Below, one piece after another: positions 3,440 through 24,169 of a DNA stretch of 32,700 bases. The stretch is from NCBI GenBank assembly GCA_039027015.1, contig JBCCLG010000003.1, forward strand, positions 1 through 32,700. Reading direction: 5' to 3'. The notes beneath the pieces are model-generated. The model had not been told where the DNA came from, searched no databases, and saw only the letters and a list, made by a program, of their open reading frames with translations. Numbering within the stretch: the first letter of the stretch is position 1; each line of letters starts with the position of its first letter. The stretch comes from Acidobacteriota bacterium. Lineage in GTDB: Bacteria; Acidobacteriota; Thermoanaerobaculia; Multivoradales; J023. Position numbers and translations under genes: made by a program.

Positions 3440-3588
3440 TCGCGGGCGGTGAGCGCCGCGAACTGGACAGAGCGGCCCCGGTCTCCGTTTGATAGGCGAT
3501 GGCCCCGCCTCCCGCCGGATGTCAGGACAGCGGCGGACGGTGTTCACCGCAAACCCTCTCACCAGGCCGACCGCTCACCGCTCCCCTG

Positions 3589-5067
3589 ATGACGACAAGA
3601 AAGCACTGGATCGGACTCGCGATCGTCGCCGTGTGGCTGGCGGCGACCGCCCTACTCATCGAGCGTGAGTTTGGCGGACAGCGCCTCGAGCTGACGGGCG
3701 AGACGCCCGCGGGCACCTCTTCAACCTGGCTGGGCCTCTACCTGGCGGACGGGCCGCGCGTCGGCCACGTGCACCTGCGCCGCCAGGAGGAAAGCCGCTC
3801 CGAGCAGCCCGGTACCCGCCTGACCCTGGATTTACAGATGGCCATGCAGCTGCTCGGCCGCGAAACCGACCTGACCGTGTCGGGAGTTTTATGGCGTTCG
3901 GCGGACGGCCAATCTGCCGAGCTCGACGTCACCGTCGACTCCTCGGAGCAGACGGTGCGCCTCGTCGGCGCGCTGGCCGACGGTCAGCTGGTGGCGGAGG
4001 TCGAGTCGGGGGGCCAGAGCTTCCCCTTCGAGGTGCCCCTCGAGGCCGACGTGCTCCTGCAGAGCGGCGGCCTCGGCGCTGCCGTCGGGCTGCCCGTGCT
4101 GGCGGTGGGCGACGATATCCGCCTGCCGAGCTTCGATCCCATCACCCTCAGCAGGGGTACGGCGAGGATCCGCTGCGTTCGCGAGGAGACCCTCGAAATC
4201 GCCGGCCGGCAGGTCCGCGCCCGCCGGCTCGAGGTCGAGGCGAGCGGCCTCAACTCGACCGCCTGGATCGATCTCGAGGGCGAGGTGGTGCGCGCCGAAA
4301 CGCCGGTCGGCCTGGTGCTCGAGCGCATCGATCCCTCGGCCTTAGCGACCTCGGAGGCGGCGGGCGGCGCAGCGGCCGGGGGCGGCGATTTTCTGGCGCG
4401 CACCGCGATCCGGCCCACGGGCGAGAGGCCTTTTCGAGGCGCCCGCCGGCTCGAGGCGCGCCTCTCGATGGCGGAGGGCCCGCTGCCGCCGGTGCCGTCG
4501 GGCGGCGCCCAGAGATTCGCCGCGGGGGGGCGGCTCACCGTGGACGCTCGCCCGGGGGCCTTGACCGCATCCGAGCAGCCGCCCACGGATCTTTTGGCCG
4601 CCGACGCCTTTGTGCAGAGCGACCACCCGCTCCTGCGGCAGCAGGCCGCCGGCATCGTCGGTGATCTCGAGGACCCGAGGGCCCAGGCCGAGGCGCTTTA
4701 TGAGTGGGTCTTCACCGAGATCGAGAAGGTGCCGGTGATGAGTCTGCCGTCGGCTCTCGAGGTGCTCGAGACCCGGCGCGGCGACTGCAACGAGCACACC
4801 GTGCTCTTCGCCGCCCTGGCGCGCGCCGTGGGCCTGCCCACGCGCATCGCCGTCGGCCTGGTGTGGAGCGAGGACCTGGCGGGCTTCTACTACCACGCGT
4901 GGCCCGAAGTGCTGATCGGCGAAGTCTTTGTGCGCCTCGACCCGACCCTCGGTCAGCCCGTCGCCGACGCCACCCACATCAAGCTGCTCGAGGGCGGTAT
5001 CGAGAGCTGGCCTCGTCTGCTGCCGTATTTGGGCCGGCTGCAGATCGAAATTCTGGAGATCGAGTGA
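3589..5067 (+). CDS. membrane-anchored transglutaminase-like domain protein
   Basis: N-terminal TM helix (WIGLAIVAVWLAATALL); catalytic triad GDCNEH, YHAWPEV, RLDPT. Confidence 0.88.
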   Translation: MTTRKHWIGLAIVAVWLAATALLIEREFGGQRLELTGETPAGTSSTWLGLYLADGPRVGHVHLRRQEESRSEQPGTRLTLDLQMAMQLLGRETDLTVSGVLWRSADGQSAELDVTVDSSEQTVRLVGALADGQLVAEVESGGQSFPFEVPLEADVLLQSGGLGAAVGLPVLAVGDDIRLPSFDPITLSRGTARIRCVREETLEIAGRQVRARRLEVEASGLNSTAWIDLEGEVVRAETPVGLVLERIDPSALATSEAAGGAAAGGGDFLARTAIRPTGERPFRGARRLEARLSMAEGPLPPVPSGGAQRFAAGGRLTVDARPGALTASEQPPTDLLAADAFVQSDHPLLRQQAAGIVGDLEDPRAQAEALYEWVFTEIEKVPVMSLPSALEVLETRRGDCNEHTVLFAALARAVGLPTRIAVGLVWSEDLAGFYYHAWPEVLIGEVFVRLDPTLGQPVADATHIKLLEGGIESWPRLLPYLGRLQIEILEIE

Positions 5068-5068
5068 C

Positions 5069-5821
5069 GTGATCGAGATCCGCTCCTTGACGAAGCGCTT
5101 CGGCCCCAAACTGGCGGTCGACAGGCTCGATCTCGAGATCGGTGCCGGCGAATTCTTCTGTTTCCTGGGGCCGAACGGCGCCGGCAAGACCACCACCATC
5201 AAGATGCTCACCGGCCTGATCCGGCCGACCGAAGGCGAGGCCCGGGTCGGCGGCATCGACGTGCAGAAGGATCCGGTGGGCGCCAAGCAGCTGCTCGGCT
5301 ACATCCCCGACCATCCCTTTCTGTACGACAAGCTCACCGGCCGCGAGCTGATGCGTTTCGTCGCCGGCCTCTACCGGCTGAGCGACGCGCGCTTCGAAGA
5401 GCTCGCGGAGCCCTTGCTCGAGACCTTCGAGCTGACCCACGTGGCCGACACCCTGGTGGAGCGCATGAGTCACGGCATGCGCCAGAAGCTGTCCTTCGCC
5501 TCCTGTTTTCTGCACGAGCCAAAGGTTGTGGTGGTCGACGAGCCGTGGGTCGGCCTCGACCCTAAGAACATCCGCGCGGTCAAGACCTACCTGCGCCGCA
5601 GGGCCGATGAAGACGGCCTGACCATCTTCATGTCGACCCACACCCTGTCGATCGCCGAGGAGGTGGCGGACCGCATCGGCATCATCCACGGCGGGCGCCT
5701 GCGCCACATGGGCACGGTCGACGAGATCAAGGCGCTCTCCGAGTCTCCGGGATCGCTCGAGGACGTCTTTCTCGAGCTGACCCGCGACGAGGCGGAGAGT
5801 CGCGAAGCGGGCCCCCCATGA
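5069..5821 (+). CDS. ABC transporter ATP-binding protein
   Basis: Walker A GPNGAGKTT, signature MSHGMRQK, Walker B VVVVDEP, H-loop STH; GTG starts 1 nt after the upstream stop. Confidence 0.95.
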   Translation: MIEIRSLTKRFGPKLAVDRLDLEIGAGEFFCFLGPNGAGKTTTIKMLTGLIRPTEGEARVGGIDVQKDPVGAKQLLGYIPDHPFLYDKLTGRELMRFVAGLYRLSDARFEELAEPLLETFELTHVADTLVERMSHGMRQKLSFASCFLHEPKVVVVDEPWVGLDPKNIRAVKTYLRRRADEDGLTIFMSTHTLSIAEEVADRIGIIHGGRLRHMGTVDEIKALSESPGSLEDVFLELTRDEAESREAGPP

Positions 5822-7530
5822 GCCAGCTCGGCGCCCTCCTATGGTCCAAGAGGAGAATCGCGCGCCACAGCCTGGCGGCGATTCGCGAGCAGTCCAAGCT
5901 CAAGGTGGGCTTCGTCGGAGTCTCCTCGCTGCTGCTCCTGATCGGCATCTACGGCGCGTCGCGGCTGGTTTTCTTCCTGCTCGAGAGCCTGGGCTCCGAA
6001 GCTCTAGGCGGCGCCCAGCTGAGCCTCGGCGATCTGGTGATGTCGCGGCTGCTCTCCACCTTCGCTCTCACCGTCTTCGTGCTGCTGATCTTCTCCAACG
6101 TGCTGGTGTGCTACGCCTCGCTCTTCCGCTCGCGAGAGATGACGATGCTGGTGCACAGCCCGCTGCCGGTCAGCACGCTTTTTCTCGGCCGCTTTGTCGA
6201 GTGCGTGAGCTTCTCCTCGTGGGCGACCGCCTTTTTGGGCGCGCCGATGCTTCTGGCCTACGGCCTCGAAAGCGGTGCGCCGCCGGCCTTTTACCTCTCC
6301 CTGGTTCTTTTCTACGTGCCGTTCGTGGTCATTCCGGCGGCGATCGGCGCCGTTCTCTCGCTGCTCATCGTGCGGCTGGTCGCCGCCCTCCGGGTGCGGC
6401 TGCTGCCCCTGGCGGCGGGCGCGGCGGCGATTGTCTCGGCTCTTTACCTTGCCCTGCGCGGCCGACTGAAGGCGCCGGACCTCTCAGAGCCCTCGGGGGT
6501 CCAGGCGATCCTCGACGTTCTGGCCGGCAGCCAGAACCCGTTTCTGCCCAGCCAGTGGCTGGCCCAGGGCGTTCTCGCCGCGGCCACCGGTGATCTCGGC
6601 GAGGCGGCCTTCCAGCTCTTCCTGCTGACCGCCAACGCGGCTCTCGCCCTCTTCATCGCCACCCTGCTGGCCGAGAGGCTGTTTTACGGCGCGTGGTCTT
6701 CGCTCCTGGCCTCCGACGCCCAGAAGCCCGCGGCCGCCTCCGCCGGCGGGTCCGCGCGGGTGCTCGAGACCCTGCTGCGCCCGCTGCCCGAGCCCGCCCG
6801 CTCGCTGACCGTCAAAGACATTCGGAGCTTTTGGCGCGAGCCGAGCCAGTGGTCGCAGTTCGTGCTCTTTTTCGGCATTCTCGCCGTCTATTTGGCGAAC
6901 CTCGGCGGCGATCGGCGGGTGGCTCTTGATCCCGAGACCTGGCAGGCGTGGGGCACCCTGCTCAACCTGGGGGCGGCGCTCCTGATCCTCGCCTCCCTGA
7001 CCACCCGCTTCGTTTACCCGCTGATCAGCCTCGAAGGGCGGCGGATCTGGATTCTGGGCATGGCCCCGCTCACCCGCCGAGGCCTGGTGTGGCAAAAGTT
7101 CTGGCTGAGCGTGGTCACCACGTCTCTGTTCACCGTCGGGCTTTCCGTGCTCTCGGCCTCCAAGCTCGAGCTGGGTCCGCTGGCCTTCGCCCTGTCGGTC
7201 GCCGCGGTGCTGGCCGCCACGATCGCCCTCTCCGGCCTGGCCGTCGGCCTGGGCAGCCTCTACCCCGACTTCGCGGACGACAACCCGGCGCGCATCGTCT
7301 CGGGCCTGGGAGGCACCCTCAACTTCCTGCTCAGCATGGTCTACGTCACTCTTCTGGCGGCGGCTCTGGGCGTCGTGCTGCTGTGGCACCGCCTCTCTGC
7401 TCAGCTCGGGGAAGACTCCTTTCCCCAGGTGCTGGCCGGCGCCATCCTGTGGATCCTCGTTCTGACCGCCGTCACCTGCTGGCTGCCCATGCGCCTCGGC
7501 ATCCGCAACCTCGAGCGTCTCGAGATTTAG
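5818..7530 (+). CDS. putative ABC exporter permease (about 12 TM helices)
   Basis: Highly hydrophobic; KDIRSFWREPSQW and SLEGRRIWIL motifs; ATGA overlap with the ATPase gene. Confidence 0.88.
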   Translation: MSQLGALLWSKRRIARHSLAAIREQSKLKVGFVGVSSLLLLIGIYGASRLVFFLLESLGSEALGGAQLSLGDLVMSRLLSTFALTVFVLLIFSNVLVCYASLFRSREMTMLVHSPLPVSTLFLGRFVECVSFSSWATAFLGAPMLLAYGLESGAPPAFYLSLVLFYVPFVVIPAAIGAVLSLLIVRLVAALRVRLLPLAAGAAAIVSALYLALRGRLKAPDLSEPSGVQAILDVLAGSQNPFLPSQWLAQGVLAAATGDLGEAAFQLFLLTANAALALFIATLLAERLFYGAWSSLLASDAQKPAAASAGGSARVLETLLRPLPEPARSLTVKDIRSFWREPSQWSQFVLFFGILAVYLANLGGDRRVALDPETWQAWGTLLNLGAALLILASLTTRFVYPLISLEGRRIWILGMAPLTRRGLVWQKFWLSVVTTSLFTVGLSVLSASKLELGPLAFALSVAAVLAATIALSGLAVGLGSLYPDFADDNPARIVSGLGGTLNFLLSMVYVTLLAAALGVVLLWHRLSAQLGEDSFPQVLAGAILWILVLTAVTCWLPMRLGIRNLERLEI

Positions 7531-7540
7531 CCGGGTCGCC

Positions 7541-8941
7541 GTGGGTTCCGCGGAGCGCCTTTACTCGCGCCTGCCCGTTTGGGGGCAGAATCTGGCCGTC
7601 ACGGCCTACGGGGTCAGCTGGTTTCTCAAGAGATTCGGCCCGGGCTTCAGGACCCAGGTCGAGGGCCTCAAGGCGCGCGATCGCTGGAGCCGGCGGGATC
7701 TCGAGTCGTGGCAGCGTCACGCTCTTTTAGACCAGCTCGCGGCCGCGGCCGAGCGCGTGCCGTTCTATCGGGAGCGCTGGAGCGGAGCCGAAAAGCGGGC
7801 GGCGCTGCGCGGCGACCTCGCGGCGCTGCCGCTGCTCGAGAAAGGCGACCTGCGAGGGGAGGAGCGGAGGTTCCTGCGCGCGGATATGGGGAACCGCCTC
7901 GGCGTCCAGACCTTCTACACCAGCGGCTCGACGGGTACCCCCATCGCCACCCACTGGACCCTTCATGAGCTGCGCGGCGCCATGGCCCTGCGGGAGGTGC
8001 GCTCGGCGGGCTGGGCCGGGGTGTCCTTCGCCGAGCCGAGGGCCACCTTTTCCGGTCGAATGGTGGTGCCCGAGGCCTTGAGCGGCGGTCCCTTTTACCG
8101 CCTGAACCGGGTCGAGAGGCAGGTCTACTTCTCCGCCTTCCACCTCTCTCCGAGCACGGCGCCCGCCTACGTTGAGGCCCTGAGGCGTCACGGCTGCCGC
8201 TGGCTCACCGGCTACGGCGTCTCTTTCTATCTGCTCGCCCGCTTCATGCTCGATCAGGGGCTTCGGCCGCCGAATCTGGCCGCGGTGATCACCACCAGCG
8301 AGAAAATCACCGAGCCCATGCGCCGGGTCATGGAAGAGGCCTACGGCTGCCCCGTTTTCGAGGAATATTCGACCGTCGAAAACATCTCCTTTGCCAGCGC
8401 CTGCGAGCACGGGCGCCTGCACGTCAGTCCGGAGGCCGGCGTCCTCGAGATCCTCCGCCCCGACGGCGCGCGGTGCGATCCCGGAGAGCCCGGCGAGGTC
8501 GTCGCCACCGGGCTGCTGAGAAGGCTTCAGCCGATGATTCGCTTCCGCCTGGGAGACGGGGCCGCGTGGGATCCCGACCCGTGCCCCTGCGGCCGGCCGT
8601 TTCCGGTCCTGCGCGAGGTGCTGGGCCGCCTCGAGGACGTGGTCGAGGGCCCCGACGGTCGACGCATGGTGCGCTTCCACGGCATCTTCATCGACCTGCC
8701 GAACGTGCTCGAGGGTCAAATCATCCAGGAGTCTCGAACCCATCTCCGAGTCAAGATCGTCGCCTCGCCGGGCTTTGGCCCCGAAGAAGAGGAGCAGATT
8801 CGCGGCCGGGTTCACCAGCGCCTGGGCGCGGAGGTCCGCGTGGACGTCGAGCGGGTCGACTCCATTCCTCGAACCTCGGCTGGAAAGTTCAGGGCCGTCG
8901 TCTCCAAGATAGGCGGCGAGACGACCGGTTCCCCCGTTTAG
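7541..8941 (+). CDS. phenylacetate-CoA ligase family / CapK-like adenylate-forming protein
   Basis: TSGSTGTP P-loop, EEYSTVE, MIRFRLGD, CPCGR, GRLED, PRTSAGKFRAV. Confidence 0.88.
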   Translation: MGSAERLYSRLPVWGQNLAVTAYGVSWFLKRFGPGFRTQVEGLKARDRWSRRDLESWQRHALLDQLAAAAERVPFYRERWSGAEKRAALRGDLAALPLLEKGDLRGEERRFLRADMGNRLGVQTFYTSGSTGTPIATHWTLHELRGAMALREVRSAGWAGVSFAEPRATFSGRMVVPEALSGGPFYRLNRVERQVYFSAFHLSPSTAPAYVEALRRHGCRWLTGYGVSFYLLARFMLDQGLRPPNLAAVITTSEKITEPMRRVMEEAYGCPVFEEYSTVENISFASACEHGRLHVSPEAGVLEILRPDGARCDPGEPGEVVATGLLRRLQPMIRFRLGDGAAWDPDPCPCGRPFPVLREVLGRLEDVVEGPDGRRMVRFHGIFIDLPNVLEGQIIQESRTHLRVKIVASPGFGPEEEEQIRGRVHQRLGAEVRVDVERVDSIPRTSAGKFRAVVSKIGGETTGSPV

Positions 8942-8955
8942 GGTCTCGGCGAAGC

Positions 8956-10311
8956 TCAAACGGCCGCGTAGGCGTTGAGCCGGTTGTAGAGGGTCTTGAG
9001 GCTGATCCCCAGCAGGTCGGCGGCCCGCTTCTTATCGCCGTCCACGTCCTCGAGGGTGATCTCGATCAGCTTGCGCTCGGCGTCGGCGATCGACATGCCG
9101 GGCTGCAGCTCGAGCCCGTGGGTGAAGCTGCGGCGGCCCCTCGTGACTTCCGGCGGCAGGCAGCCGGCGTCGACCTCGTCGCCGGCGACGATGAAGGCGC
9201 GCTGCACGGCGTTTCGCAGCTCGCGCACGTTGCCCGGCCATGAATGACCGCACAGCGCCTCGAGGGCGTCGGCGGTGAACTGCTTCTCCACGCTCCCCTC
9301 CCGGCTATGCCCCTCGAGAAAGAACTCGGCGAGCTGCGCGACGTCGGCGCCGCGGGCGCGCAGGGGCGGCATGCGGACCGGAAAGACGTTCAGGCGGTAG
9401 TAGAGGTCCTCGCGCAGCTCGCCCTCGGCCACCGCCTTCTCCGGATCGCGGTTGGTCGCGCCGACGATGCGGACGTCGATCCTCCGCGGCTCGGTGCTGC
9501 CGACCCGGGTCACCTGGCTGGTCTCGAGAACGCGCAGCAGCTTGACCTGCAGCTCCGGCGGCATCTCGGTGACCTCGTCGAGAAAGAGCGTGCCGCCGTC
9601 CGCCTGCTCGAAATACCCCCGGTGCATTCTCTCGGCGCCCGTAAAGGCGCCCTTCTCGTGGCCGAAAAGCTCGCTCTCGATGAGGTTGGCGGCCACCGCG
9701 CCGCAGTTGACGGCCACAAAGGGCTGACGACGCCGGCGCGAGAGGCGGTGCACGGTCTCTGCCGCCAGCTCCTTGCCGGTGCCGCTCTCGCCCACCACCA
9801 GCACGGTGGCGTCGGTGGGCGCTACCTTCTCGAGCAGGTCATAGAGCCGCTGCATCGCCTTGGAGGTGCCCACCATCGATCCGAAGCGACCGAGCTGACG
9901 CAGCTCGCCGCGCAGGCTCGAGATCTCGTTCTTGAGCTCCCGGGTGCGCCCGACGCCGGCCAAAAGCGCCTTGAGGCGGGACTCGTCCAGCGGCTTGGTC
10001 AGGTAGTCGTAGGCGCCGAGTCTCAGAGCCTCCACCGCGGTGGCCACCGACGCGTTGCCGGTGATCATGATCACCTCCACCCCGGCGATCGACCTCGCGT
10101 CGGCCAAAAGCGCCGTGCCTTCGCCGTCGGGCAGATGAAGATCGGCCAGCACCACGTCGGGCTTCCACTCTTCGAGGGCCCGCGTGCCGCCGGCCAAATC
10201 CCTGGCGATGCGGGTCTCAAAACCCTCCATCTCCACCAGCGCCGCCAGCGCGTGCACCGTCGCCTCGTGATCCTCGACCACCAGGACCTTGCCGGAACTC
10301 TTCTCGGTCAT
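8956..10311 (-). CDS. sigma54-dependent response regulator (REC-AAA+-Fis HTH, NtrC family)
   Basis: REC (VVEDH...ADLHLPD...KP), GESGTGKE, GAFTGA, LFLDEV, WPGNVREL, HTH AADLLGISLKTLYNRL; ATG at 10311 overlaps the upstream stop (ATGA). Confidence 0.95.
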   Translation of the reverse strand: MTEKSSGKVLVVEDHEATVHALAALVEMEGFETRIARDLAGGTRALEEWKPDVVLADLHLPDGEGTALLADARSIAGVEVIMITGNASVATAVEALRLGAYDYLTKPLDESRLKALLAGVGRTRELKNEISSLRGELRQLGRFGSMVGTSKAMQRLYDLLEKVAPTDATVLVVGESGTGKELAAETVHRLSRRRRQPFVAVNCGAVAANLIESELFGHEKGAFTGAERMHRGYFEQADGGTLFLDEVTEMPPELQVKLLRVLETSQVTRVGSTEPRRIDVRIVGATNRDPEKAVAEGELREDLYYRLNVFPVRMPPLRARGADVAQLAEFFLEGHSREGSVEKQFTADALEALCGHSWPGNVRELRNAVQRAFIVAGDEVDAGCLPPEVTRGRRSFTHGLELQPGMSIADAERKLIEITLEDVDGDKKRAADLLGISLKTLYNRLNAYAAV

Positions 10312-10946
10312 CGGGACGCCTCGATTCGGATCTCGATTCGGTGATCGCTCGCCCGCACGCGGGCGCCTGAGGGAGACCAGAGGGTCTCGAGCAGCCGCGG
10401 CTCGGGGCGACCCCCGCCCTCGAGGCGGGCGAGCGCGGCGCTCGGGCCTGCGCCGGAGACGGTCAGCAGCACCGGCGACCCGGAGCCTTCGGGCGCCGAA
10501 TCCAGAGCTGCGGAGGCCGTTGCGAGCAGCGCCGAGCCGGCGCCCGGGGCCCAGTCGCCGATCCGCGGCTCGGCCTCGAGACGCCAGGAGCGGTCCCGCT
10601 TGCCGGCCAGGGACTCGAGGAGCGGCTCGGCCGCGCGCAGGCGCCGACAGAGGTCCCTTGGGCCCGCGGGCACTTCCCGCTGCGGGTCCGCCGGCTCGAG
10701 CCAGGAAGCCAGCTCGAAGAGCTTCTCGAGACTCGAGACCTCCTCCTGAACCACCCTCAGCCAGCGGCCGGCCGAAGCGGTGCCGAGGGTGCGCTCGAGC
10801 AGAGTGAGATTGAGCTTGACGGCGTTGAGCGGCGAGCGCAGATCGTGCTCCACGGCCCTCAGCAGGGGCCGCAGGGCCAGCTCGCGGGCGCCGAGCCACG
10901 CGAGATCGACAGGTTCGTGCCGGGAAGGGATATCTGAAAGCGTCAT
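10308..10946 (-). CDS. histidine-kinase-like protein with DHp His motif and degenerate ATPase domain (possible phosphotransferase)
   Basis: EHDLRSPLNAVKLNL H-box; no recognisable N, G1 or G2 boxes; no sensor domain; translationally coupled to the regulator. Confidence 0.75.
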   Translation of the reverse strand: MTLSDIPSRHEPVDLAWLGARELALRPLLRAVEHDLRSPLNAVKLNLTLLERTLGTASAGRWLRVVQEEVSSLEKLFELASWLEPADPQREVPAGPRDLCRRLRAAEPLLESLAGKRDRSWRLEAEPRIGDWAPGAGSALLATASAALDSAPEGSGSPVLLTVSGAGPSAALARLEGGGRPEPRLLETLWSPSGARVRASDHRIEIRIEASR

Positions 10947-10979
10947 GGGGAGACGGAGCCTCCGCGCTGTTGGCTAAAG

Positions 10980-11014
10980 CGGAAGTTTTCCACGCTGCTT
11001 GTAATTCCTGCAAG
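10980..11014. promoter_or_regulatory. tandem enhancer-like palindromes (putative bEBP upstream activating sequence)
   Basis: CGGAA-GTT-TTCCA (10980-10992) and TGTAA-TTC-CTGCA (11000-11012), 20 bp apart; motif recurs at 21209-21241. Confidence 0.6.
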
Positions 11015-11056
11015 CCGGCTTCTCAGAAGACCCTGACCAGCTCGGTTCGCGGCCGT

Positions 11057-11069
11057 CAAATCGTTGAAT
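11057..11069 (-). promoter_or_regulatory. putative IHF site
   Basis: Minus strand ATTCAACGATTTG versus consensus WATCAANNNNTTR (one mismatch), lying between the enhancer and the -24/-12 promoter. Confidence 0.45.
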
Positions 11070-11109
11070 CTATGGGTTTTGTCGAATGTTCGTGCAGCCT
11101 GGCGAAGCA

Positions 11110-11126
11110 CGGCACGGACCGTGCTT
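11110..11126 (+). promoter_or_regulatory. sigma54 -24/-12 promoter
   Basis: CGGCACGGACCGTGCTT = GG-N10-GC with GGCACG, upstream of the hybrid kinase. Confidence 0.65.
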
Positions 11127-11386
11127 ACTCCCCTTTCGTGAACCTCACGACCGGAGACCCCATGAAGCCCTACGACCTGCCCAAAGCGCCTCGAGCGAAA
11201 CCGCGGTCCAGCCGGCAAGCCCTGCGTCTCGCCGACGTCGATCGGTCAGACAGCGGCGGATCGGGCCCGGGTTTGCCCGAGGGGGCGCCGAACCCTGGGT
11301 ACACTGCGCAGAACCGCCGCACCCTGCCCGCGCCCGGAGCCGCTTTGCCCTCGATCGAGTCTTCGGCCGCACGGAGAGCTCCCGCC

Positions 11387-12994
11387 ATGACGCCGCCGAC
11401 TCCGATTCTGAAGATACCCCTCCACGCCGACCAGGACCTCGTTCTGGTGCGCCAGAGAACCCGGCAGATAGCCGGGCTTCTCGGCCTGGACGCCGGCACC
11501 CGGAGCCGGGCGGCAACCGCCGTTTCGGAGATCGCCCGGGTGATCCTGGAGGGCGGGGAGCGAGGGGAGATCGAATTCGCCGTCTGTCCGGGCGCCGCCG
11601 CGGACGATCTTGGGATCCGCGCGCATGGAGACGGCCCGGACGTCACAAGTTTCGACGAGAGTCTTCGCGACGTCCGCGAGCTCGCCGACGCCGCCGAAAT
11701 CCATCGCGCTTCGAGCGGCGCTCCCCGCGTCGAGATGCGATGGAGGCTCGGCCACACCGTCACGCGCCAGGCTCTCGACGAGCTGCGGGACAGGCTCCAC
11801 CAAGAGCCGCCGGGCAGCGCCTTCACCGAAGTGCAGCAGCAGCATCAGGAGCTGCTGCACGCCCAGAAAGCGCTGGCCCACGCCCGCCGCGAGCTGGCCA
11901 GCGCCGACCGCTCGAAGGATCGATTCATGGCGATGCTCGGCCACGAGCTGCGCAATCTCCTGAACGCCCTGCACAGCGGTCTCGAGGTGCTCAAGCGCGA
12001 TCCGCCGCCGGCGCTCCAGGCGCGCATGCAGAACCTGGCGATCGGCCAGACCGAGCACCTGCGGCGGCTGATCGACGATCTGCTCGACGCCTCTCAGATC
12101 CAGCGCGGCCAGCTCGAGGTGCGGGCCCTGGCGCTCGATCTAACCCGCGAGGTCGAAGCGCTGCTCGAGTCGTGGCACGGCGAGGTCTCGCGGGCCGGCC
12201 TCCGTCTGCGCATCGAGCGGCCGGCCGAGATTCTCTGGGCCCGGGCCGACCCGACCCGCCTGGCGCAAATCGTCGGCAACCTGCTCTCGAACGCCTGCAA
12301 ATTCACCGACCCGGGAGGCGAGATCGTGGTCCGGATCGAGGAGTCCGGCGACCGGGTGCGGCTGACCGTGGCGGACACCGGATGCGGCATGGAGCCGGAC
12401 GCGCTGGAGAAGGTCTTCGAGCCCTTCGCGCAGACTTCAGAAGCCAAGAAGCGCATGACCGGCGGGCTCGGCCTGGGCCTGGCGATCGTCCGCGGCCTGG
12501 TGGAGAGTCACGGCGGCGCCATGCGCGCGGAGAGCGACGGCCCCGGGCACGGCACGCGCTTTCTCGTCGAGCTGCCGAGGGTCGAGGAGCCCCAGGAAGA
12601 AACGATGCTGATCCCGGTGGCCGAGCCCGAGGGGCTCAAGATCCTGCTGGTGGACGACCACCGAGCCTCGGTGGAGGGCCTGGCCGAGCTGCTGCGCCTC
12701 GAGGGCCACGAGGTGGAGGTCGCTCTCGACGGGCCACAGGCCCTCGAGATCCACGCCCGCATGACGCCGGACATCATGCTGTGCGATCTCGGCCTGCCGG
12801 GCATGGACGGCTACGAGGTGGCGCGGCTTCTGCGCAGCTCGGAGGACGGCGAGGCCCTGCGCCTTCTCGCGCTTTCGGGCTTCGCCGACCCCGAGGCTAA
12901 AAACCGGGCGATCGAGGCCGGCTTCGACGCCCACCTGAGCAAGCCGGTCAACGTGGTCGAGCTGATCCAGCGCCTGCACGCCGAGGAGGGCTGA
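11387..12994 (+). CDS. hybrid histidine kinase (RsbT-like N-terminal domain, HisKA, HATPase, REC)
   Basis: DLVLVRQRTRQIA..LG.....ATAVSEIAR (RsbT-like); GHELRN; NLLSNACKFT, DTGCGM, GLGLGL; REC with CDLGLPGMDG and SKPV; alternative in-frame ATG with RBS at 11162. Confidence 0.92.
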   Translation: MTPPTPILKIPLHADQDLVLVRQRTRQIAGLLGLDAGTRSRAATAVSEIARVILEGGERGEIEFAVCPGAAADDLGIRAHGDGPDVTSFDESLRDVRELADAAEIHRASSGAPRVEMRWRLGHTVTRQALDELRDRLHQEPPGSAFTEVQQQHQELLHAQKALAHARRELASADRSKDRFMAMLGHELRNLLNALHSGLEVLKRDPPPALQARMQNLAIGQTEHLRRLIDDLLDASQIQRGQLEVRALALDLTREVEALLESWHGEVSRAGLRLRIERPAEILWARADPTRLAQIVGNLLSNACKFTDPGGEIVVRIEESGDRVRLTVADTGCGMEPDALEKVFEPFAQTSEAKKRMTGGLGLGLAIVRGLVESHGGAMRAESDGPGHGTRFLVELPRVEEPQEETMLIPVAEPEGLKILLVDDHRASVEGLAELLRLEGHEVEVALDGPQALEIHARMTPDIMLCDLGLPGMDGYEVARLLRSSEDGEALRLLALSGFADPEAKNRAIEAGFDAHLSKPVNVVELIQRLHAEEG

Positions 12995-13002
12995 GCCGCC
13001 GG

Positions 13003-14199
13003 TCATAGGGTCAGCAGGCCGCTGGCCAGAAGGCCGGCCAGAAGCCCCGCGCCGCCGCTGACGCCGCCGAGCACCAGGCCGAAGAGGGCCCGCCGCCGCC
13101 GGATCTCGAGGCGCTGGGCCACCGCCTCGGCGCAGCCGTCTTCCTCGGCCACAAAGCGGCCCTCGAGGATCTTCGGCAGCCACCCGAGGTAGATCGTCGC
13201 CATCGTCGCCAAGAACGTCAGGTAGACGGCCACCGGTCCGAGCCAGTGGGCGCGCAGGGGCGGCGCCATAAAGCCCAGGCAGCCCACGGTCACGGCGAGA
13301 AGAGCCGAGGCTCGGAGCCTTTTCAGCTGGTGCCTCTCGGCCTCGCTGCGGGCGGCCTCGAGGTCGCGGCGCAGACCCAGCACCACGCCCGCGGCGCCGC
13401 CGAGCCAGCCCACGGCCGCGCCGCCTCCGAGGATCAGGAGTTTTTGGACCCAGCCGGCGTGGCCGGAGGCGCCCGCGAGGGCCGCGGCGGCGGCCGTCGG
13501 CGCCGAGGCCGTGGCCGCCAGAACCGAGGCGGTAAACGCCGCCCCCGGCGCGCTCTTTCTGGCCAGCTCGGCGAAGCGCTCCAGCATTTCCGCGCGCAGG
13601 CCGGCGCGGGCGCGCTGCAGGCGTTTTCTCACCGCGGCCTCCGAGAGCCCGAGGAGTGAAGCCACCTGGCGGGTCGAGCGACCCTCACGGTAGAAGAGCA
13701 CCATGACCTCCCGAGACTCGTCGGGCATGGCTTCGAGGGCCTGGGCGAGAATCGCCTCGCGCTCTCGGCCGAGCAGCGCGCCCTCCGGGCCCAGGGCCGG
13801 GTCGGCGGCGCGCTCGACGCTGGACTCGGCGGCGCCTTGGGTCTCGAGATCGCCGGACTCAAGATCGCCGGGCCCGGCGATCAGGCGGGCTCGCGTGCGC
13901 CCGTCGCGCACCCAGGTTCGCGCCGTGAGGCGAGCGATCTGCCGCACCCACGGCAGGAAGCTCGCCGGGTTTTCAAGCTCCGGCAGCCGGCGCCACGCGG
14001 TGAGAAAAACATCCTGGGCGATATCTTCGCTCGCCGCCACGTCGCGGCTAATGGCGAGGGTGATCGCGGTCACCGAGCCCTTGGCGGCGTCCACCAGACG
14101 CCGGAATGCGCTGCCGTCGGCTCGGGCCGCGGCCTTGACGAAGGGGACCAGCTCCATCTCGAGGGGCAGGGGGTTCGAGGCGGCGGCGGCGGCGCTCAT
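13003..14199 (-). CDS. ECF sigma factor with C-terminal transmembrane extension (RfaY-like)
   Basis: Region 2 SEDIAQDVFLTAWRRL..L..PASFLPWVRQIAR; region 4 LFYREGRSTRQVASLLGLSEAAVRKRLQRAR; about four C-terminal TM segments; resembles Xanthomonas RfaY from memory. Confidence 0.88.
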   Translation of the reverse strand: MSAAAAASNPLPLEMELVPFVKAAARADGSAFRRLVDAAKGSVTAITLAISRDVAASEDIAQDVFLTAWRRLPELENPASFLPWVRQIARLTARTWVRDGRTRARLIAGPGDLESGDLETQGAAESSVERAADPALGPEGALLGREREAILAQALEAMPDESREVMVLFYREGRSTRQVASLLGLSEAAVRKRLQRARAGLRAEMLERFAELARKSAPGAAFTASVLAATASAPTAAAAALAGASGHAGWVQKLLILGGGAAVGWLGGAAGVVLGLRRDLEAARSEAERHQLKRLRASALLAVTVGCLGFMAPPLRAHWLGPVAVYLTFLATMATIYLGWLPKILEGRFVAEEDGCAEAVAQRLEIRRRRALFGLVLGGVSGGAGLLAGLLASGLLTL

Positions 14200-20376: not shown

Positions 20377-20961
20377 CTAGCTGGCTGAGACGTCAATCAA
20401 ATCGATCACGCGCTCCACGCCCGAGATGCCCTGGGCGGTCTCGAGGGCCAGCTTCTCGTGTCGATCCTCGTCCAGCTGACCGCGAAGGCTGACCTGGCCC
20501 TCGCTAGCCTCCACCTCGATATCGAAAGCGCGCCGGCCCATCTCGCCGATAAGAGCGGCCTTGACCCGACTCTCGAGGATGGCGTCCTTTACCTCGAGCT
20601 CAGCCTTGGCCACGCCCTCGCCCACTGGAGCGTCCGTGGGTGAGTCGATGACCTTGAGCTCGTTGGTGACCTTCTCGACACCCTCGATCGACAAAGCCAC
20701 TTCCTTGGCCAGCTCGCGATTCGCTTTGCTCTCGGCTTCGCCCAGGAGGAAGACGTGGTCGCCCTCGGCCTCGACGTCGGTATCGATCATGTCCCAGCCG
20801 ATTTTGCTGAGCAGCGCGGTCTTGACCTGCAGCTCGGTCGCCGCATCCTTCACCACGTCGCCGAGATCTGTCTCGGTCGTGGCCAGCGCCGGTGCGGAGA
20901 GCAGGGCGAGGGCGACGAGAGCGGCGGTGAAGAGGGTGCGTTTCGTGTCGGTGGAAAACAT
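20377..20961 (-). CDS. secreted double BON domain protein (OsmY-like)
   Basis: Signal peptide; two repeats D......VK.AL.......I.VE...G.V.L.G......A...A..I.GV..V; AAAGGGA RBS. Confidence 0.9.
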   Translation of the reverse strand: MFSTDTKRTLFTAALVALALLSAPALATTETDLGDVVKDAATELQVKTALLSKIGWDMIDTDVEAEGDHVFLLGEAESKANRELAKEVALSIEGVEKVTNELKVIDSPTDAPVGEGVAKAELEVKDAILESRVKAALIGEMGRRAFDIEVEASEGQVSLRGQLDEDRHEKLALETAQGISGVERVIDLIDVSAS

Positions 20962-21070
20962 GTTTCCCTTTCTCGATCGTGCGGTTTGAGATCGCGTTAT
21001 CTGTAGGTCTGGCTGTGTGTGTATGTATGCATGTATGCGGGAAGCGTCTCCCCGCGAACGCCGTAGGAGA

Positions 21071-21087
21071 GTGCAGCCCGCGTGCCA
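21071..21087 (-). promoter_or_regulatory. sigma54 -24/-12 promoter for the BON gene
   Basis: Minus strand TGGCACGCGGGCTGCAC, near-consensus. Confidence 0.75.
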
Positions 21088-21206
21088 GGGCTCCTGTTTA
21101 GGCGCCTGGAATCGCGGTTTCCGGGCCTGGGCGAGTTGCGCCCATGTAAGAAGCCAGGATGACCCAGCACGCGAGACGCCGGAGTCTCGGGGCGCCGAGA
21201 GCGCTG

Positions 21207-21241
21207 CTTGTAACGCTTACAAGGGAACGTGCAGATTTGCA
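21207..21241. promoter_or_regulatory. tandem enhancer-like palindromes (putative bEBP upstream activating sequence)
   Basis: Perfect CTTGTAA-CGC-TTACAAG (21207-21223) plus GTGCA-GAT-TTGCA (21229-21241) 20 bp away. Confidence 0.65.
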
Positions 21242-21306: not shown

Positions 21307-21323
21307 TGGCACCGCCCCTGCAA
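21307..21323 (+). promoter_or_regulatory. sigma54 -24/-12 promoter for the repeat protein gene
   Basis: TGGCACCGCCCCTGCAA, about 40 nt before the AGGAG-ATG start. Confidence 0.75.
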
Positions 21324-21365: not shown

Positions 21366-22631
21366 ATGACTTTCAGAAATATATTCCTCTATTCGAGTCT
21401 CTTCGCCCTGACCGCGTCACCGGTCCTCGCCCAGAAGGCAGCCTCCAGCAGCCTGCGATCGCAGGGCGACACGCGGGTCAACACCATGATCTCCTCCGCC
21501 CAGGAGCGCCCGTCGGTCGCCGTTTTCGAGGGCGGATGGGTCAGCGCCTGGCAGAGCCGGGAGGGCACCGCCGACCTCGAGAGTCGGGCTCGCCGCTCGC
21601 AGGCCAGCCAGCAGGACATCCTGGTCAACACCTCCAGCCTCGGCACCCAGCGCGACCCCGACGTGGCCGCGGATCCCCAAGGTAATTTCGCGGTGGTTTG
21701 GTACTCCAACGAGCCCGCGGAGCCGGGCGGTGACGACTCCGGCTTCGGGATCGCCGCGCGCCTCTTCGACGCCGACGGCAACGCCCTCGGCCCCGCTTTT
21801 CAGGTGAACGACCTCACGGACGGCCACCAGATGCACCCGCGAGTGGCGATGGCTCAGGACGGCAGCTTCGTGGTGACCTACCGCAGCAGCGAGTCCTTCG
21901 GCGGCGACGACTCGGGCTCGAGCGTTCAGGCCCGCCTGTTCGACGCCGGCGGCATTCCGCTGGGGCCGAGCTTTCAGGTCAACACCACCACATTTCTCGA
22001 TCAGCAATACCCCGACGTGGCGTTGAGCCCCGCCGGAGCCTTCATCGTGACCTGGCAGAGCCTGCTGCAGGACGGATCGGTCGACGGCGTCTACGCCAGG
22101 CGCTTTGACGCGAACGGCACGCCGCTCTCCGGTGAGCTTCAGGTGAACGTGACCACCGAAGGTTCCCAGAGCCGTCCCGAGATCGTCATCGCCAACAACG
22201 GACGCGCCATGATCGTGTGGCAGTGCGAGGATCTCGAGGCGGGCCTCGAGGTGCGCGGACGGATTTTTGCCGCCAGCGGACAGGCCATCGGCGGCGAGAT
22301 CCCTCTTAATACCCTGACCGGCGGCACGCAGAATCTGCCGAGCGTTTCCGCCTTGAGCACCGGCTTCATCACCGCCTGGCAGAGCAGCATCACCGAAGGC
22401 ACCGACCAGAGCGGCTTCAGCGTGCAGGTGCGGGTGTTCGGATTCGGCGGCCAGACCTTCGCCCCGGAGCTGCAGCTCAACACCTCCACCCAGGGCGGCC
22501 AGACCAACGTTTCCGCGGCCGGCTACAGCACCGAGATCGCCGTGGTGTGGGATAGCGATCACCAGTCCTTCACCGACGAAGACATCTATATTTTCCGGGA
22601 CGAGACCGCGCAGCAGAAGCCGCGCCGCTAG
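21366..22631 (+). CDS. secreted repeat protein, probable 7-bladed beta-propeller
   Basis: AGGAG RBS, signal peptide, seven repeats of (F/L)QVNT.T...Q..P.VA....G.F.V.W.S. Confidence 0.85.
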   Translation: MTFRNIFLYSSLFALTASPVLAQKAASSSLRSQGDTRVNTMISSAQERPSVAVFEGGWVSAWQSREGTADLESRARRSQASQQDILVNTSSLGTQRDPDVAADPQGNFAVVWYSNEPAEPGGDDSGFGIAARLFDADGNALGPAFQVNDLTDGHQMHPRVAMAQDGSFVVTYRSSESFGGDDSGSSVQARLFDAGGIPLGPSFQVNTTTFLDQQYPDVALSPAGAFIVTWQSLLQDGSVDGVYARRFDANGTPLSGELQVNVTTEGSQSRPEIVIANNGRAMIVWQCEDLEAGLEVRGRIFAASGQAIGGEIPLNTLTGGTQNLPSVSALSTGFITAWQSSITEGTDQSGFSVQVRVFGFGGQTFAPELQLNTSTQGGQTNVSAAGYSTEIAVVWDSDHQSFTDEDIYIFRDETAQQKPRR

Positions 22632-22750: not shown

Positions 22751-22868
22751 CGTGTCTTGGTCTGCGGGATGGCCGGCGCGAGCCGTTAAGATGCGCTGCC
22801 CACTTGCTGAATTGGTCAGAAGGCAGGCACGCGTCGAGAACCAGCTGCGCCGCGAGCGCGGGGGAGCC

Positions 22869-24134
22869 GTGAAAAGAGTCGTCACAGCAATTTTGGGAGG
22901 CGGACAGGGAAGCCGCCTTTGGCCCTTGACCCAATACCGCTCGAAGCCGGCGGTGCCCGTGGCGGGCAAATTCCGCCTGATCGACGTGCCGATCTCCAAC
23001 AGTCTGCACGCCGGCATCGACCGCATCTACGTGCTGACCCAATTCAACAGCGCCAGCCTGCACCGGCACATCGCCCAAACGTACCGCTTCGATATGTTTT
23101 CGAAGGGCTTTGTCAACATCCTGGCGGCAGAGCAGAGCCTGGGCAATCGGGATTGGTATCAGGGGACCGCCGACGCGGTGCGCCAGAACGTCGAGCGCCT
23201 GACCTACGACGGGCCCGACGACGTGCTCATCCTCTCCGGCGATCAGCTCTACGCCATGCAGATGAGCGAGTTCGTCGGCCAGCACCGCGAGCGCGGCGCG
23301 GATCTGACCATCGCGGTCAAGCCGGTGAGCCGCGAAGAGGCTCCGGGGCTCGGCATCATGCGCGTCGACGCCCAGGGCCGCATCGTCGAATTCGTCGAGA
23401 AGCCCAAAGACCCGGGCGTGCTCGATAGCCTCACCCTCGACCACGAGACGATCACCACCCTCGGCCTCGACGCCGAGCCGGGCACGCTGCTCGCCAGCAT
23501 GGGGATTTACGTCTTCAAGGCGTCGGTGCTCGGCCCGATCCTCGCCGAAGATCCCTCAAAGACGGACTTCGGCCGCGAGATCATTCCGTCGGCCCTCGAG
23601 ACGATCGACGTGCGCGCCTACCTCTACAACGGCTACTGGCGCGACATCGGCACGGTGCCGGCCTTCCACGAAGCCAATATCGAGCTGACCGAGGAGAATC
23701 CGCCGCTCAACCTCTACCGCCAGGACGAGCCGATTTTCACCCACGCCCGTTTTTTGCCGGGCCTCAAGATCCTCAACTGCCAGATCGAGCAGTCGGTGCT
23801 GTGCGAGGGCTCGGTGATCAAGGCCGAGCGCATCGTGAAGTCGGTGATCGGCATTCGCTCGATGGTGCGCGAGGGCACGGTGCTCGAGCGCTGCGTGGTC
23901 ATGGGCACCACCCAAAGACAGTCGACCAACGCCGAGGACGAGGTGCAGATGGGGATCGGCCGCGACTGCCATATCCACAACGCGATCATCGATAGCGGCG
24001 CGCGCATCGGCGACGGCAGCCGGCTGATCAACGAGAGCGGGGTCGAGGAGGCGGACGGCGACTTCTACTGCATCCGCGGCGGCGTGGTCGTGATTCCGGC
24101 CATGGCCGTGGTGCCGCCCGGCACGGTCATCTAA
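22869..24134 (+). CDS. glgC: glucose-1-phosphate adenylyltransferase
   Basis: ILGGGQGSRLWPLT..RSKPAVP, TQFNSASL, WYQGTADAVRQ, LSGDQLY, FVEKP, ASMGIYVF, DFGREIIP, YWRDIGT; GGAG RBS before GTG. Confidence 0.96.
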   Translation: MKRVVTAILGGGQGSRLWPLTQYRSKPAVPVAGKFRLIDVPISNSLHAGIDRIYVLTQFNSASLHRHIAQTYRFDMFSKGFVNILAAEQSLGNRDWYQGTADAVRQNVERLTYDGPDDVLILSGDQLYAMQMSEFVGQHRERGADLTIAVKPVSREEAPGLGIMRVDAQGRIVEFVEKPKDPGVLDSLTLDHETITTLGLDAEPGTLLASMGIYVFKASVLGPILAEDPSKTDFGREIIPSALETIDVRAYLYNGYWRDIGTVPAFHEANIELTEENPPLNLYRQDEPIFTHARFLPGLKILNCQIEQSVLCEGSVIKAERIVKSVIGIRSMVREGTVLERCVVMGTTQRQSTNAEDEVQMGIGRDCHIHNAIIDSGARIGDGSRLINESGVEEADGDFYCIRGGVVVIPAMAVVPPGTVI

Positions 24135-24169
24135 GACCGCCGCGCCGCCCGAGGAATCGGAGACAAGCC

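Follow-up and report, generated by a model that had tools for sequence, protein, structure and literature searches.

We analysed a 32,700-nucleotide stretch of acidobacterial DNA (the window, which is the entire contig C3 of a 6.57-Mb assembly in 1301 contigs, 89.6% complete) for a candidate phosphorelay that would end in a sigma-54 activator. The host organisms are uncultured Acidobacteriota-type bacteria. G000 denotes the genome of the window, other G-numbers denote the genomes of its relatives, and L-numbers denote the loci or contigs compared. The sequencing runs listed comprise three DNA runs from a single study and no RNA run. The window has a G+C content of about 69%, and positions 8956-12994 hold the three genes in question: the activator and a small histidine protein, p212, both on the minus strand, and a divergent hybrid histidine kinase on the plus strand.

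The activator gene (8956..10311, minus strand) encodes a 451-aa bacterial enhancer-binding protein (bEBP) of the NtrC family, with orthologs of 65-77% identity in six relatives. It combines a receiver, an AAA+ sigma-54 interaction domain with GAFTGA and a Fis-type helix-turn-helix, as expected of a bEBP: the Pfam matches were to Response_reg (79.9 bits), Sigma54_activat (241.7 bits), AAA_lid_14 and HTH_8, the receiver Asp is residue 57, and GAFTGA lies at residue 221. The p212 gene (10308..10946, minus strand) encodes a 212-aa DHp (HisKA) protein, which Pfam, alignment A1, an AlphaFold2 model with its fold matches and the DHp signature described below together mark as a candidate histidine phosphotransferase. 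Its stop codon overlaps the activator start in an ATGA, and the pair is translationally coupled.

The hybrid kinase (11387..12994, plus strand; 535 aa) was defined by Pfam, alignment A2 and its key residues. We placed its start at 11387, in line with its orthologs; 11162 is an alternative. It matches HisKA (48.1 bits), HATPase_c (108.3 bits) and, at its C-terminus, Response_reg (85.4 bits), and it retains His186, the N, G1 and G2 boxes of an intact ATP-binding (CA) domain, and the receiver residues DD423, D467 and K519. At the level of sequence it has a phosphorylatable His, an ATP-binding domain of functional type and a receiver Asp, which are what a phosphorelay kinase requires. The Pfam domains, these residues and the ATGA overlap confirm the three-gene architecture that a first-pass annotation had read from this DNA.

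The three genes form a conserved module

Orthologs of the hybrid kinase were found in 6 of 40 relatives and, among 300 genomes from the order, in seven including this one, all from one family; none of 400 other genomes sampled from the phylum had a full-length ortholog (E≤1e-100). All seven genomes carry all three genes, with a p212-family gene directly upstream of an activator ortholog, and the gene-neighbourhood check suggested with the first-pass annotation, once run, bore out the synteny that it had anticipated. Across these seven genomes, which represent four genera, the p212-family gene is uninterrupted and overlaps or abuts the activator gene. Linkage between kinase and activator also held in all seven, despite the gain or loss of a 4.7-kb stressosome block between them. 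Judging by gene content and order, the trio is a conserved module, with a predicted role in signalling.

p212 as a shrunken kinase

HisKA was the only Pfam match of p212 (30.6 bits, cut-off 26.9), with the His at residue 34; neither HATPase_c nor Hpt (PF01627) was matched in Pfam. A word-based homolog search with p212 returned only p212 itself. An exhaustive search of 1.84 billion representatives gave a family of seven proteins, p212 included, at E≤1e-10. The other six are 97-225 aa long, and two more distant relatives of about 230 aa still have the N, G1 and G2 motifs. We also scanned metagenomes with the p212 alignment and obtained at least 40 loci. None of the matches listed came closer than 30% whole-protein identity, and the genomic surroundings of the nearest members of the family (P0002, P0003, P0005, P0006 and P0007) were not among them; these matches did include further intact cognate kinases and the contig L077. 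On this contig, a HisKA-only gene and an activator ortholog are preceded by an IS66-family transposase (L077:1608-3158), and the upstream region, in which one might look for a hybrid kinase, seems to be disrupted.

The proteins encoded just upstream of the activator in the relatives differ widely in size. Searches with hidden Markov models and inspection of the sequences gave a 232-aa form in G001, 281-376 aa open frames whose C-terminal part is degenerate in G008, G011 and G012, and forms of about 98 aa consisting of the DHp domain only in G002 and G006. Besides p212 itself, all nine p212-family proteins scanned with Pfam were HisKA-only; the G001 copy matched no Pfam family at E≤0.001. Where no hybrid-kinase ortholog was present in the fetched flanks, activator orthologs (50-62% identity) were preceded by a complete kinase. 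The six of these scanned were all 487-662 aa long, with HATPase_c matches of 75-78 bits and weak, sub-threshold matches to GAF, PAS or sCache in their N-terminal regions. G033 has an intact minimal kinase of 250 aa at the position of p212.

Alignment A1 contains 28 invariant columns, all within the first 83 residues and His34 among them, while the C-terminal half varies greatly. All 13 tabulated p212-family sequences retain the His. We then compared the DHp positions +11, +12 and +15 from the His, which were picked from the HK853 rewiring mutations named in PDB titles and from general knowledge. The p212 family has L, N/H and L at these positions (13/13), close to the [LVIM], N/T and L of the intact cognate kinases (12/12), whereas the hybrid kinase orthologs have S, S/G/A and V (7/7). 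Gene position, domain content and this signature show p212 to be a shrunken descendant of the activator's own cognate kinase, and one that probably keeps the face by which its ancestors docked the activator. In the loci compared, loss of the ATP-binding domain goes together with an adjacent hybrid-kinase gene. Judged by its sequence, p212 is a separate His protein that should be unable to autophosphorylate, because the ATP-binding domain has been lost.

The AlphaFold2 model of p212 (mean predicted local distance difference test score (pLDDT) 83.5, predicted TM-score 0.80) consists of a DHp helical hairpin and a small CA-like alpha/beta domain with six residues in place of the ATP lid. Its top fold match in the PDB by Foldseek was the phosphotransferase ChpT (4qpk, E 2.2e-7; 4fmt, E 6.7e-7).

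Sigma-54-like sites and a shared palindrome

Three sigma-54 -24/-12-like elements in the window could be promoters under the control of the activator. The first, CGGCACGGACCGTGCT (11110..11125, plus strand, 2 mismatches), lies upstream of the hybrid kinase, and an equivalent site, TGGCATGCACCGTGCA, is found upstream of the G001 ortholog. The other two face away from each other and have 1 mismatch each: TGGCACGCGGGCTGCA (21072..21087, minus strand; previously given as 21071) lies upstream of a BON-domain gene, and TGGCACCGCCCCTGCA (21307..21322, plus strand) lies upstream of a gene for a candidate secreted protein. As matches to the consensus, all have GG at -24 and GC at -12 with the proper spacing and orientation, and all stand upstream of a gene.

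A 17-bp palindrome, CTTGYAA-N3-TTRCAAG, sits about 80-130 bp upstream of each of these sites and is a candidate bEBP site (upstream activating sequence). One copy, CTTGTAATTCCTGCAAG (10998..11014), precedes the kinase promoter by about 100 bp and the p212 start by 52 bp; given this second distance, the activator may also regulate its own operon. The other, CTTGTAACGCTTACAAG (21207..21223), is perfect and lies between the two divergent promoters. At up to 2 mismatches the palindrome occurs twice in the window against 0.03 expected, a count reached in 0 of 100 shuffles. At up to 1 mismatch the whole 6.57-Mb assembly has just these two sites, and a backwards control pattern has one. A scan of 10850-11450 for sigma-70 promoters and terminators found nothing for the p212-activator operon.

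Promoter-like sites also stand upstream of the kinase or its operon in all seven loci (in five of them, upstream of an operon running from MscS through the stressosome genes to the kinase), and equivalent sites in the relatives precede a BON, DUF2383 or secreted-protein ortholog beside the activator. We consider the three sites in the window credible because of their position, their orientation, their conservation in relatives and the palindrome that they share. An rpoN gene was found in the genome. These matches support a predicted local sigma-54 regulon with feedback on the kinase gene, much as first proposed.

The BON-domain protein (20377..20961, minus strand) has two BON repeats by Pfam and is a candidate member of this regulon. 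Its gene is 10 kb from the activator here but adjacent to the bEBP gene in G001, G002 and G006, which supports a functional link. The candidate secreted protein (21366..22631, plus strand; 421 aa) has an N-terminal hydrophobic stretch that we read by eye as a signal peptide; its gene starts at 21366 and not at 21159. It shares 55% identity with its G001 ortholog by tblastn, and the gene for the latter adjoins those for BON and the bEBP. The protein matched no Pfam family above cut-off, and the leads from the Atlas were only hypothetical, phytase-like or BNR-like proteins.

Several other features lie near these or equivalent sites. A TG/TA-rich low-complexity run (tgtgtgtgtatgtatgcatgtatgc, 21000-21045) falls within what is presumed to be the BON gene's 5' leader. 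On the strand of the secreted-protein gene and 120 bp 3' of it lie glgC (ADP-glucose pyrophosphorylase-like) and glgA (starch synthase-like) (22752-25630, plus strand). Their co-transcription from the sigma-54 promoter is possible, but we rejected them as members of the regulon, as this downstream placement is not conserved in G001. Additional sigma-54-like sites with 0 to 2 mismatches and palindromes nearby were found in G012 (L034:9966-10219) and G011 (L035:9674-9689), just 3' of the kinase gene and ahead of genes that are small or unassigned (62-433 aa, without a Pfam match). The genes behind them are likely extra members of the regulon in those two genomes.

The kinase input domain and the stressosome

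The kinase had also been described as RsbT-like. Pfam matched nothing in the first ~150 residues of the window kinase (E≤0.01), but a free-standing RsbT from G002 matched residues 4-93 (E 8.4e-6), and the kinase orthologs carry an N-terminal HATPase_c_2 domain of the RsbT/SpoIIAB type (51.8 bits in G001, 71.6 bits in G002). On the strength of that match and of alignment A2, we assign 11387..11806 (plus strand) to a degenerate RsbT-like (HATPase_c_2-type) domain. The three motifs of an RsbT-type GHKL domain are intact in the six orthologs, whereas in the window copy the N-box Asn is replaced by Val (SEIARV versus SEI.RNA in the orthologs), G1 is altered and a 12-residue deletion takes out G2. 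Between G000 and G001, the ratio of nonsynonymous to synonymous substitution rates (dN/dS) is 0.46 for this domain versus 0.26 for the kinase core, although dS is near saturation and the ratios are rough.

In five of the six relatives (G002, G006, G008, G011 and G012) the kinase is the final gene of a stressosome operon with linked RsbR, RsbS and RsbT, as expected of a stressosome output. The gene order is MscS, RsbR (RsbRD_N and STAS), RsbS (STAS), RsbT, a phosphatase (PP2C) with HATPase_c_2 and SpoIIE domains, and the kinase. The block from MscS to the phosphatase is absent from this genome and from G001, and the kinase gene faces p212 directly. RsbR gave no match anywhere in G000 or G001 (both ~89% complete). 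With an RsbT query, only the kinase's own N-terminal domain was matched in the orthologous loci of these two genomes, and elsewhere each had one further weak match (E 3.1e-4 and 1.2e-4). The kinase is RsbT-related, and the decay of its N-terminal domain is consistent with loss of the stressosome. Because this genome has a degenerate RsbT-like domain and no detectable stressosome, a stress input is argued from the relatives and not from the window. The stress theme of the first-pass annotation accordingly stands for the relatives, with five stressosome operons and with BON or DUF2383 genes beside the activator, but not for the input in this genome.

Two further points concern the RsbT-like domains. 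The N-terminal domain is degenerate in this genome alone; G001, also without the stressosome genes, has intact motifs, and the decay may be a recent loss of function following loss of the partner. Each stressosome operon (L032:7224-8264 in G002, with equivalents in L033-L036) encodes three RsbT-like domains, one as free RsbT, one in the SpoIIE/PP2C phosphatase fusion and one in the hybrid-kinase fusion. This suggests that the outputs dock directly on the stressosome rather than via RsbU_N.

A candidate His-Asp-His-Asp relay

We propose that the hybrid kinase would autophosphorylate at His186 and transfer the phosphoryl group to Asp467 of its own receiver, from which it would move to His34 of p212. 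As a dimeric DHp protein that does not bind ATP, p212 would act as a histidine phosphotransferase of the ChpT/Spo0B type and hand the phosphoryl group to Asp57 of the activator. The phosphorylated activator would then bind the 17-bp palindrome and drive the sigma-54 promoters of the kinase gene, giving positive feedback, and of the BON-domain and secreted-protein genes. In the relatives, the kinase would serve as the output of the stressosome operon; here, with the stressosome gone, its RsbT-like input domain would be decaying. We infer each phosphotransfer step, the binding of DNA by the activator and the role in stress from the comparisons above. Such a four-step relay via p212 is in our judgement the best reading of the locus, and we would give it an even chance of being correct.

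The composition of the module fits this order of transfer. Because its His-bearing DHp domain cannot bind ATP, p212 could be charged only from a receiver or by another kinase, and in all seven genomes the p212-family gene is found with a hybrid kinase whose terminal receiver is intact. We also modelled the complex of receiver and DHp domain, as had been suggested. Two copies of p212 with the kinase receiver gave an ipSAE of 0.33, versus 0.00 for the best of three controls, with a partner pLDDT of 82 and at least 81% of contacts in agreement between runs. Of 80 solved complexes used for calibration, 58 reached the mark, as did 2 of 110 mismatches; with scores of 0.60 or less, only 7 of the 80 did so, along with both of the passing mismatches. 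We take the prediction as weak support, and the pass may reflect likeness to solved complexes of DHp domains with receivers.

Several observations weigh against the relay. Some of them concern p212 itself. True kinases match its model as well as ChpT does (E 2e-7 to 1e-6, TM-score ~0.44), and p212 does not match the ChpT family PF10090 (E≤0.01), to which weak matches were found in intact kinase relatives only. On the 9-kb contig L077, a HisKA-only gene lies beside an activator ortholog with no hybrid kinase. The protein also evolves fast: between G000 and G001, dN/dS is 0.54 for the DHp domain and 0.47 for the C-terminal part, whereas the activator stands at 0.19 and the kinase core at 0.26; all are rough ratios because dS is near saturation. 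Ratios of about 0.5 are what one would expect if p212 were a decaying relic without a present role, left behind when the activator came to use a different phosphodonor, whether the hybrid kinase itself, some other kinase or acetyl phosphate. The variability of its C-terminal half, the rarity of the family (seven proteins in the exhaustive search) and the progressive size series from 487-662 aa through 250 and ~212 to ~98 aa would fit a relic as well. A relic should not, however, have been retained uninterrupted against the activator gene in seven genomes of four genera, nor should it have kept 28 invariant DHp columns, His34 included, and the DHp-only gene is under purifying selection (dN/dS 0.22 between G002 and G006). 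Spo0B, too, lacks strong sequence conservation even within a genus, according to PMC6136694. We regard the relic as quite improbable.

The likeness of the two receivers can be read in two ways. Among the 107 receiver domains found in the genome, those of the kinase and the activator were reciprocal best in helix alpha-1 (BLOSUM62 score 46, next best 36 and 32), in a comparison that used a receiver hidden Markov model built from these two families and alpha-1 columns chosen by us. By full-length identity the same pair ranks 32nd and 51st of 106. Likeness in alpha-1 would give the two receivers the overlapping specificity that they need in order to share a phosphotransferase, a requirement stated for Spo0F, Spo0A and Spo0B in PMC6136694. 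It fits equally well if the two receivers instead dock on the DHp domain of the hybrid kinase, which could in principle see them both. In that case the hybrid kinase would phosphorylate the activator directly, with its own receiver as a competing sink or an autoinhibitory element, and p212 would be a dedicated phosphatase or modulator of the activator. Co-translation with the activator, descent from a bifunctional kinase lineage and a retained activator-docking face would all suit such a role. Phosphatase activity in HisKA proteins does not strictly need the His, which is nevertheless invariant in all 13 family sequences, and it does need T or N at His+4, where the p212 family has S, G, E or A; this second point is a weak one, as intact relatives also have A. 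The DHp signature of the hybrid kinase, S, S/G/A and V in all seven orthologs, is moreover unlike that of the activator's cognate lineage. The first-pass annotation had taken it as established that a terminal receiver needs a phosphotransferase to reach a response regulator, which is not always so: such a receiver may be regulatory instead, a possibility raised for RsbK in the abstract of PMC4574943. With these points on both sides, we consider a phosphatase or modulator role unlikely, though it deserves serious attention.

The hybrid kinase might also find its partner elsewhere. Eight Hpt-domain matches in this genome, and 8-19 in each of four relatives, are possible alternatives to p212. The relay would then be completed by a classical Hpt protein whose gene lies outside the locus, and p212 would have no share in carrying phosphoryl groups from the kinase. 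The known relays into sigma-54 activators both use Hpt proteins, ShpA and LuxU. The relay through ShpA is described in PMC7010744. Neither the window nor any of the six orthologous loci has an Hpt gene, however, by Pfam or tblastn. Across the five genomes, 37 of 54 Hpt matches fall in open frames of more than 500 aa and only 15 in frames of less than 300 aa, and an Hpt route leaves unexplained the constant presence of a DHp gene without a CA domain beside the pair. We hold this route to be highly improbable.

The regulatory sites, finally, are less distinctive by number than by position. At up to 2 mismatches the window has 8 sigma-54-like sites against 9.14 expected, and at up to 1 mismatch it has 2 against 0.55, a count reached in 12 of 100 shuffles. 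Across the seven loci, 12 of 16 palindrome matches at up to 3 mismatches lie within 260 bp upstream of sigma-54-like sites, in stretches that make up 2.9% of the sequence, but this count is partly circular because we drew the consensus by eye from those very regions. Site numbers at chance level are what would be seen if the kinase and the p212-activator pair merely lay side by side, each with partners of its own, and if the matches to promoter and palindrome had arisen by coincidence. Coincidence does not readily account for linkage in all seven genomes across a stressosome block that comes and goes, nor for a palindrome that the assembly has, at up to 1 mismatch, only at the two predicted sites (one site for the backwards control) and that no shuffle of the window yielded twice. 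We find it barely credible that the genes are neighbours by chance.

Neighbouring genes

A same-strand cluster at 3499-8941 (plus strand) ends 15 bp from the activator stop codon. Its products are a transglutaminase-like protein, an ABC ATPase, a membrane protein of PF16949 ('ABC_tran_2') and an enzyme of 466 aa whose match to AMP-binding is weak and below threshold. On the other side, a gene at 13003-14199 (minus strand) is convergent with the kinase gene and encodes a 398-aa sigma factor of the extracytoplasmic function type (Sigma70_r2, r4_2) with a long hydrophobic C-terminal extension. We considered this gene as a member of the module and rejected it, as G001 has a gene for a short-chain dehydrogenase/reductase at the same position. 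In G002, the gene convergent with the hybrid kinase (L032:10043-15169) encodes a 1708-aa nSTAND1 NTPase with RHS repeats.

Possible origin of the proposed relay and comparison with known systems

If the relay through p212 operates as proposed, its history may be visible within a single order. The locus would then document how a DHp-type histidine phosphotransferase arose independently for a third time, Spo0B and ChpT being the earlier cases, with graded stages: a sensor kinase of 487-662 aa, a minimal kinase of 250 aa, a CA-degenerate form of ~212 aa and a DHp-only form of ~98 aa. The cognate kinase of a sigma-54 activator would have been captured below a stressosome-controlled, RsbT-fused hybrid kinase, linking the stressosome to a sigma-54 general stress response without a SigB-type sigma factor. 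In this genome the stressosome would since have been lost, leaving the input domain to decay and the circuit to be rewired again. We put this history forward tentatively, as possible but somewhat short of probable.

How phosphorelays are born from simple two-component pairs is an open question, and the known DHp-type carriers, Spo0B and ChpT, are of such age that no intermediates can be seen. In the related genomes compared here, a single kinase lineage occupies the same locus in intact, minimal, CA-degenerate and DHp-only forms, and a few purified proteins would suffice to test directly how a phosphotransferase is born. The proposal, if true, would also place a sigma-54 activator among the known stressosome outputs, with a small and clean regulon of one palindrome and three promoters.

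Relays of this general form have precedents. TacA is a sigma-54 activator and ShpA is an Hpt-type protein. In Vibrio, the hybrid kinases LuxN, LuxQ and CqsS signal through the phosphotransferase LuxU to the sigma-54 activator LuxO. That relay resembles ours in having hybrid kinases feed a phosphotransferase that controls a sigma-54 activator, and differs in that LuxU is an Hpt protein, with no kinase-derived DHp carrier, and that the targets are small RNAs. In Caulobacter crescentus, ShkA, ShpA and TacA form a multistep cascade in which the signal reaches TacA via ShpA (PMC7010744). The order of hybrid histidine kinase, separate histidine phosphotransferase and response regulator is the same as that proposed here, but the carrier here would be a kinase-derived DHp (HisKA) protein rather than an Hpt-type one, and the input of ShkA is cyclic di-GMP, not a stressosome or an RsbT-like domain.

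As a candidate carrier, p212 is closest to ChpT (CckA-ChpT-CtrA) and Spo0B (Spo0F-Spo0B-Spo0A), dimeric DHp-type proteins with a degenerate CA-like domain that shuttle phosphoryl groups between two receivers. ChpT is the top fold match of its model, in which a DHp hairpin is likewise joined to a degenerate CA domain, but true kinases score alike. Like p212, Spo0B is poorly conserved and resembles kinases, from which it is hard to tell (PMC6136694). Unlike ChpT, p212 lies outside PF10090, in a separate HisKA lineage whose intact kinase relatives can still be identified. The terminal regulator is a sigma-54 activator and not CtrA or Spo0A, and two relatives of p212 have lost the CA-like domain completely.

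On the input side, the five relatives in which the kinase directly follows RsbR, RsbS, RsbT and the PP2C phosphatase resemble the RsbRST(X) modules of other bacteria (Vibrio vulnificus VvD1/VvD2 among them), except that the RsbT-like domain is on the kinase itself, in place of RsbU_N, and that this genome has no detectable stressosome. Stressosome clusters with downstream phosphorelays of HisKA and REC proteins are described in section 10 of PMC9237108, and clusters with two-component outputs in the available part of PMC10014275; neither of these portions names a sigma-54 activator as an output.

The NtrB-NtrC operon provides the nearest parallel for the activator end of the module. There, too, the gene for a REC-AAA+-HTH_8 activator is preceded by a HisKA gene and coupled to it, and a 17-bp palindrome, here a candidate site, is the binding site upstream of a -24/-12 promoter. 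The difference is that the kinase partner at our locus has no ATP-binding domain. The combination had first been called undescribed. The succession of hybrid kinase, phosphotransferase and sigma-54 activator is already known, and that claim narrows to the exact set: an RsbT-fused or stressosome-linked hybrid kinase, a kinase-derived DHp carrier and a sigma-54 activator were not found together in the literature searched, which covered few subscription journals. Relays into sigma-54 activators and DHp-type carriers are each known from other bacteria; the particular combination of the two that we predict for this acidobacterial family appears to be new.

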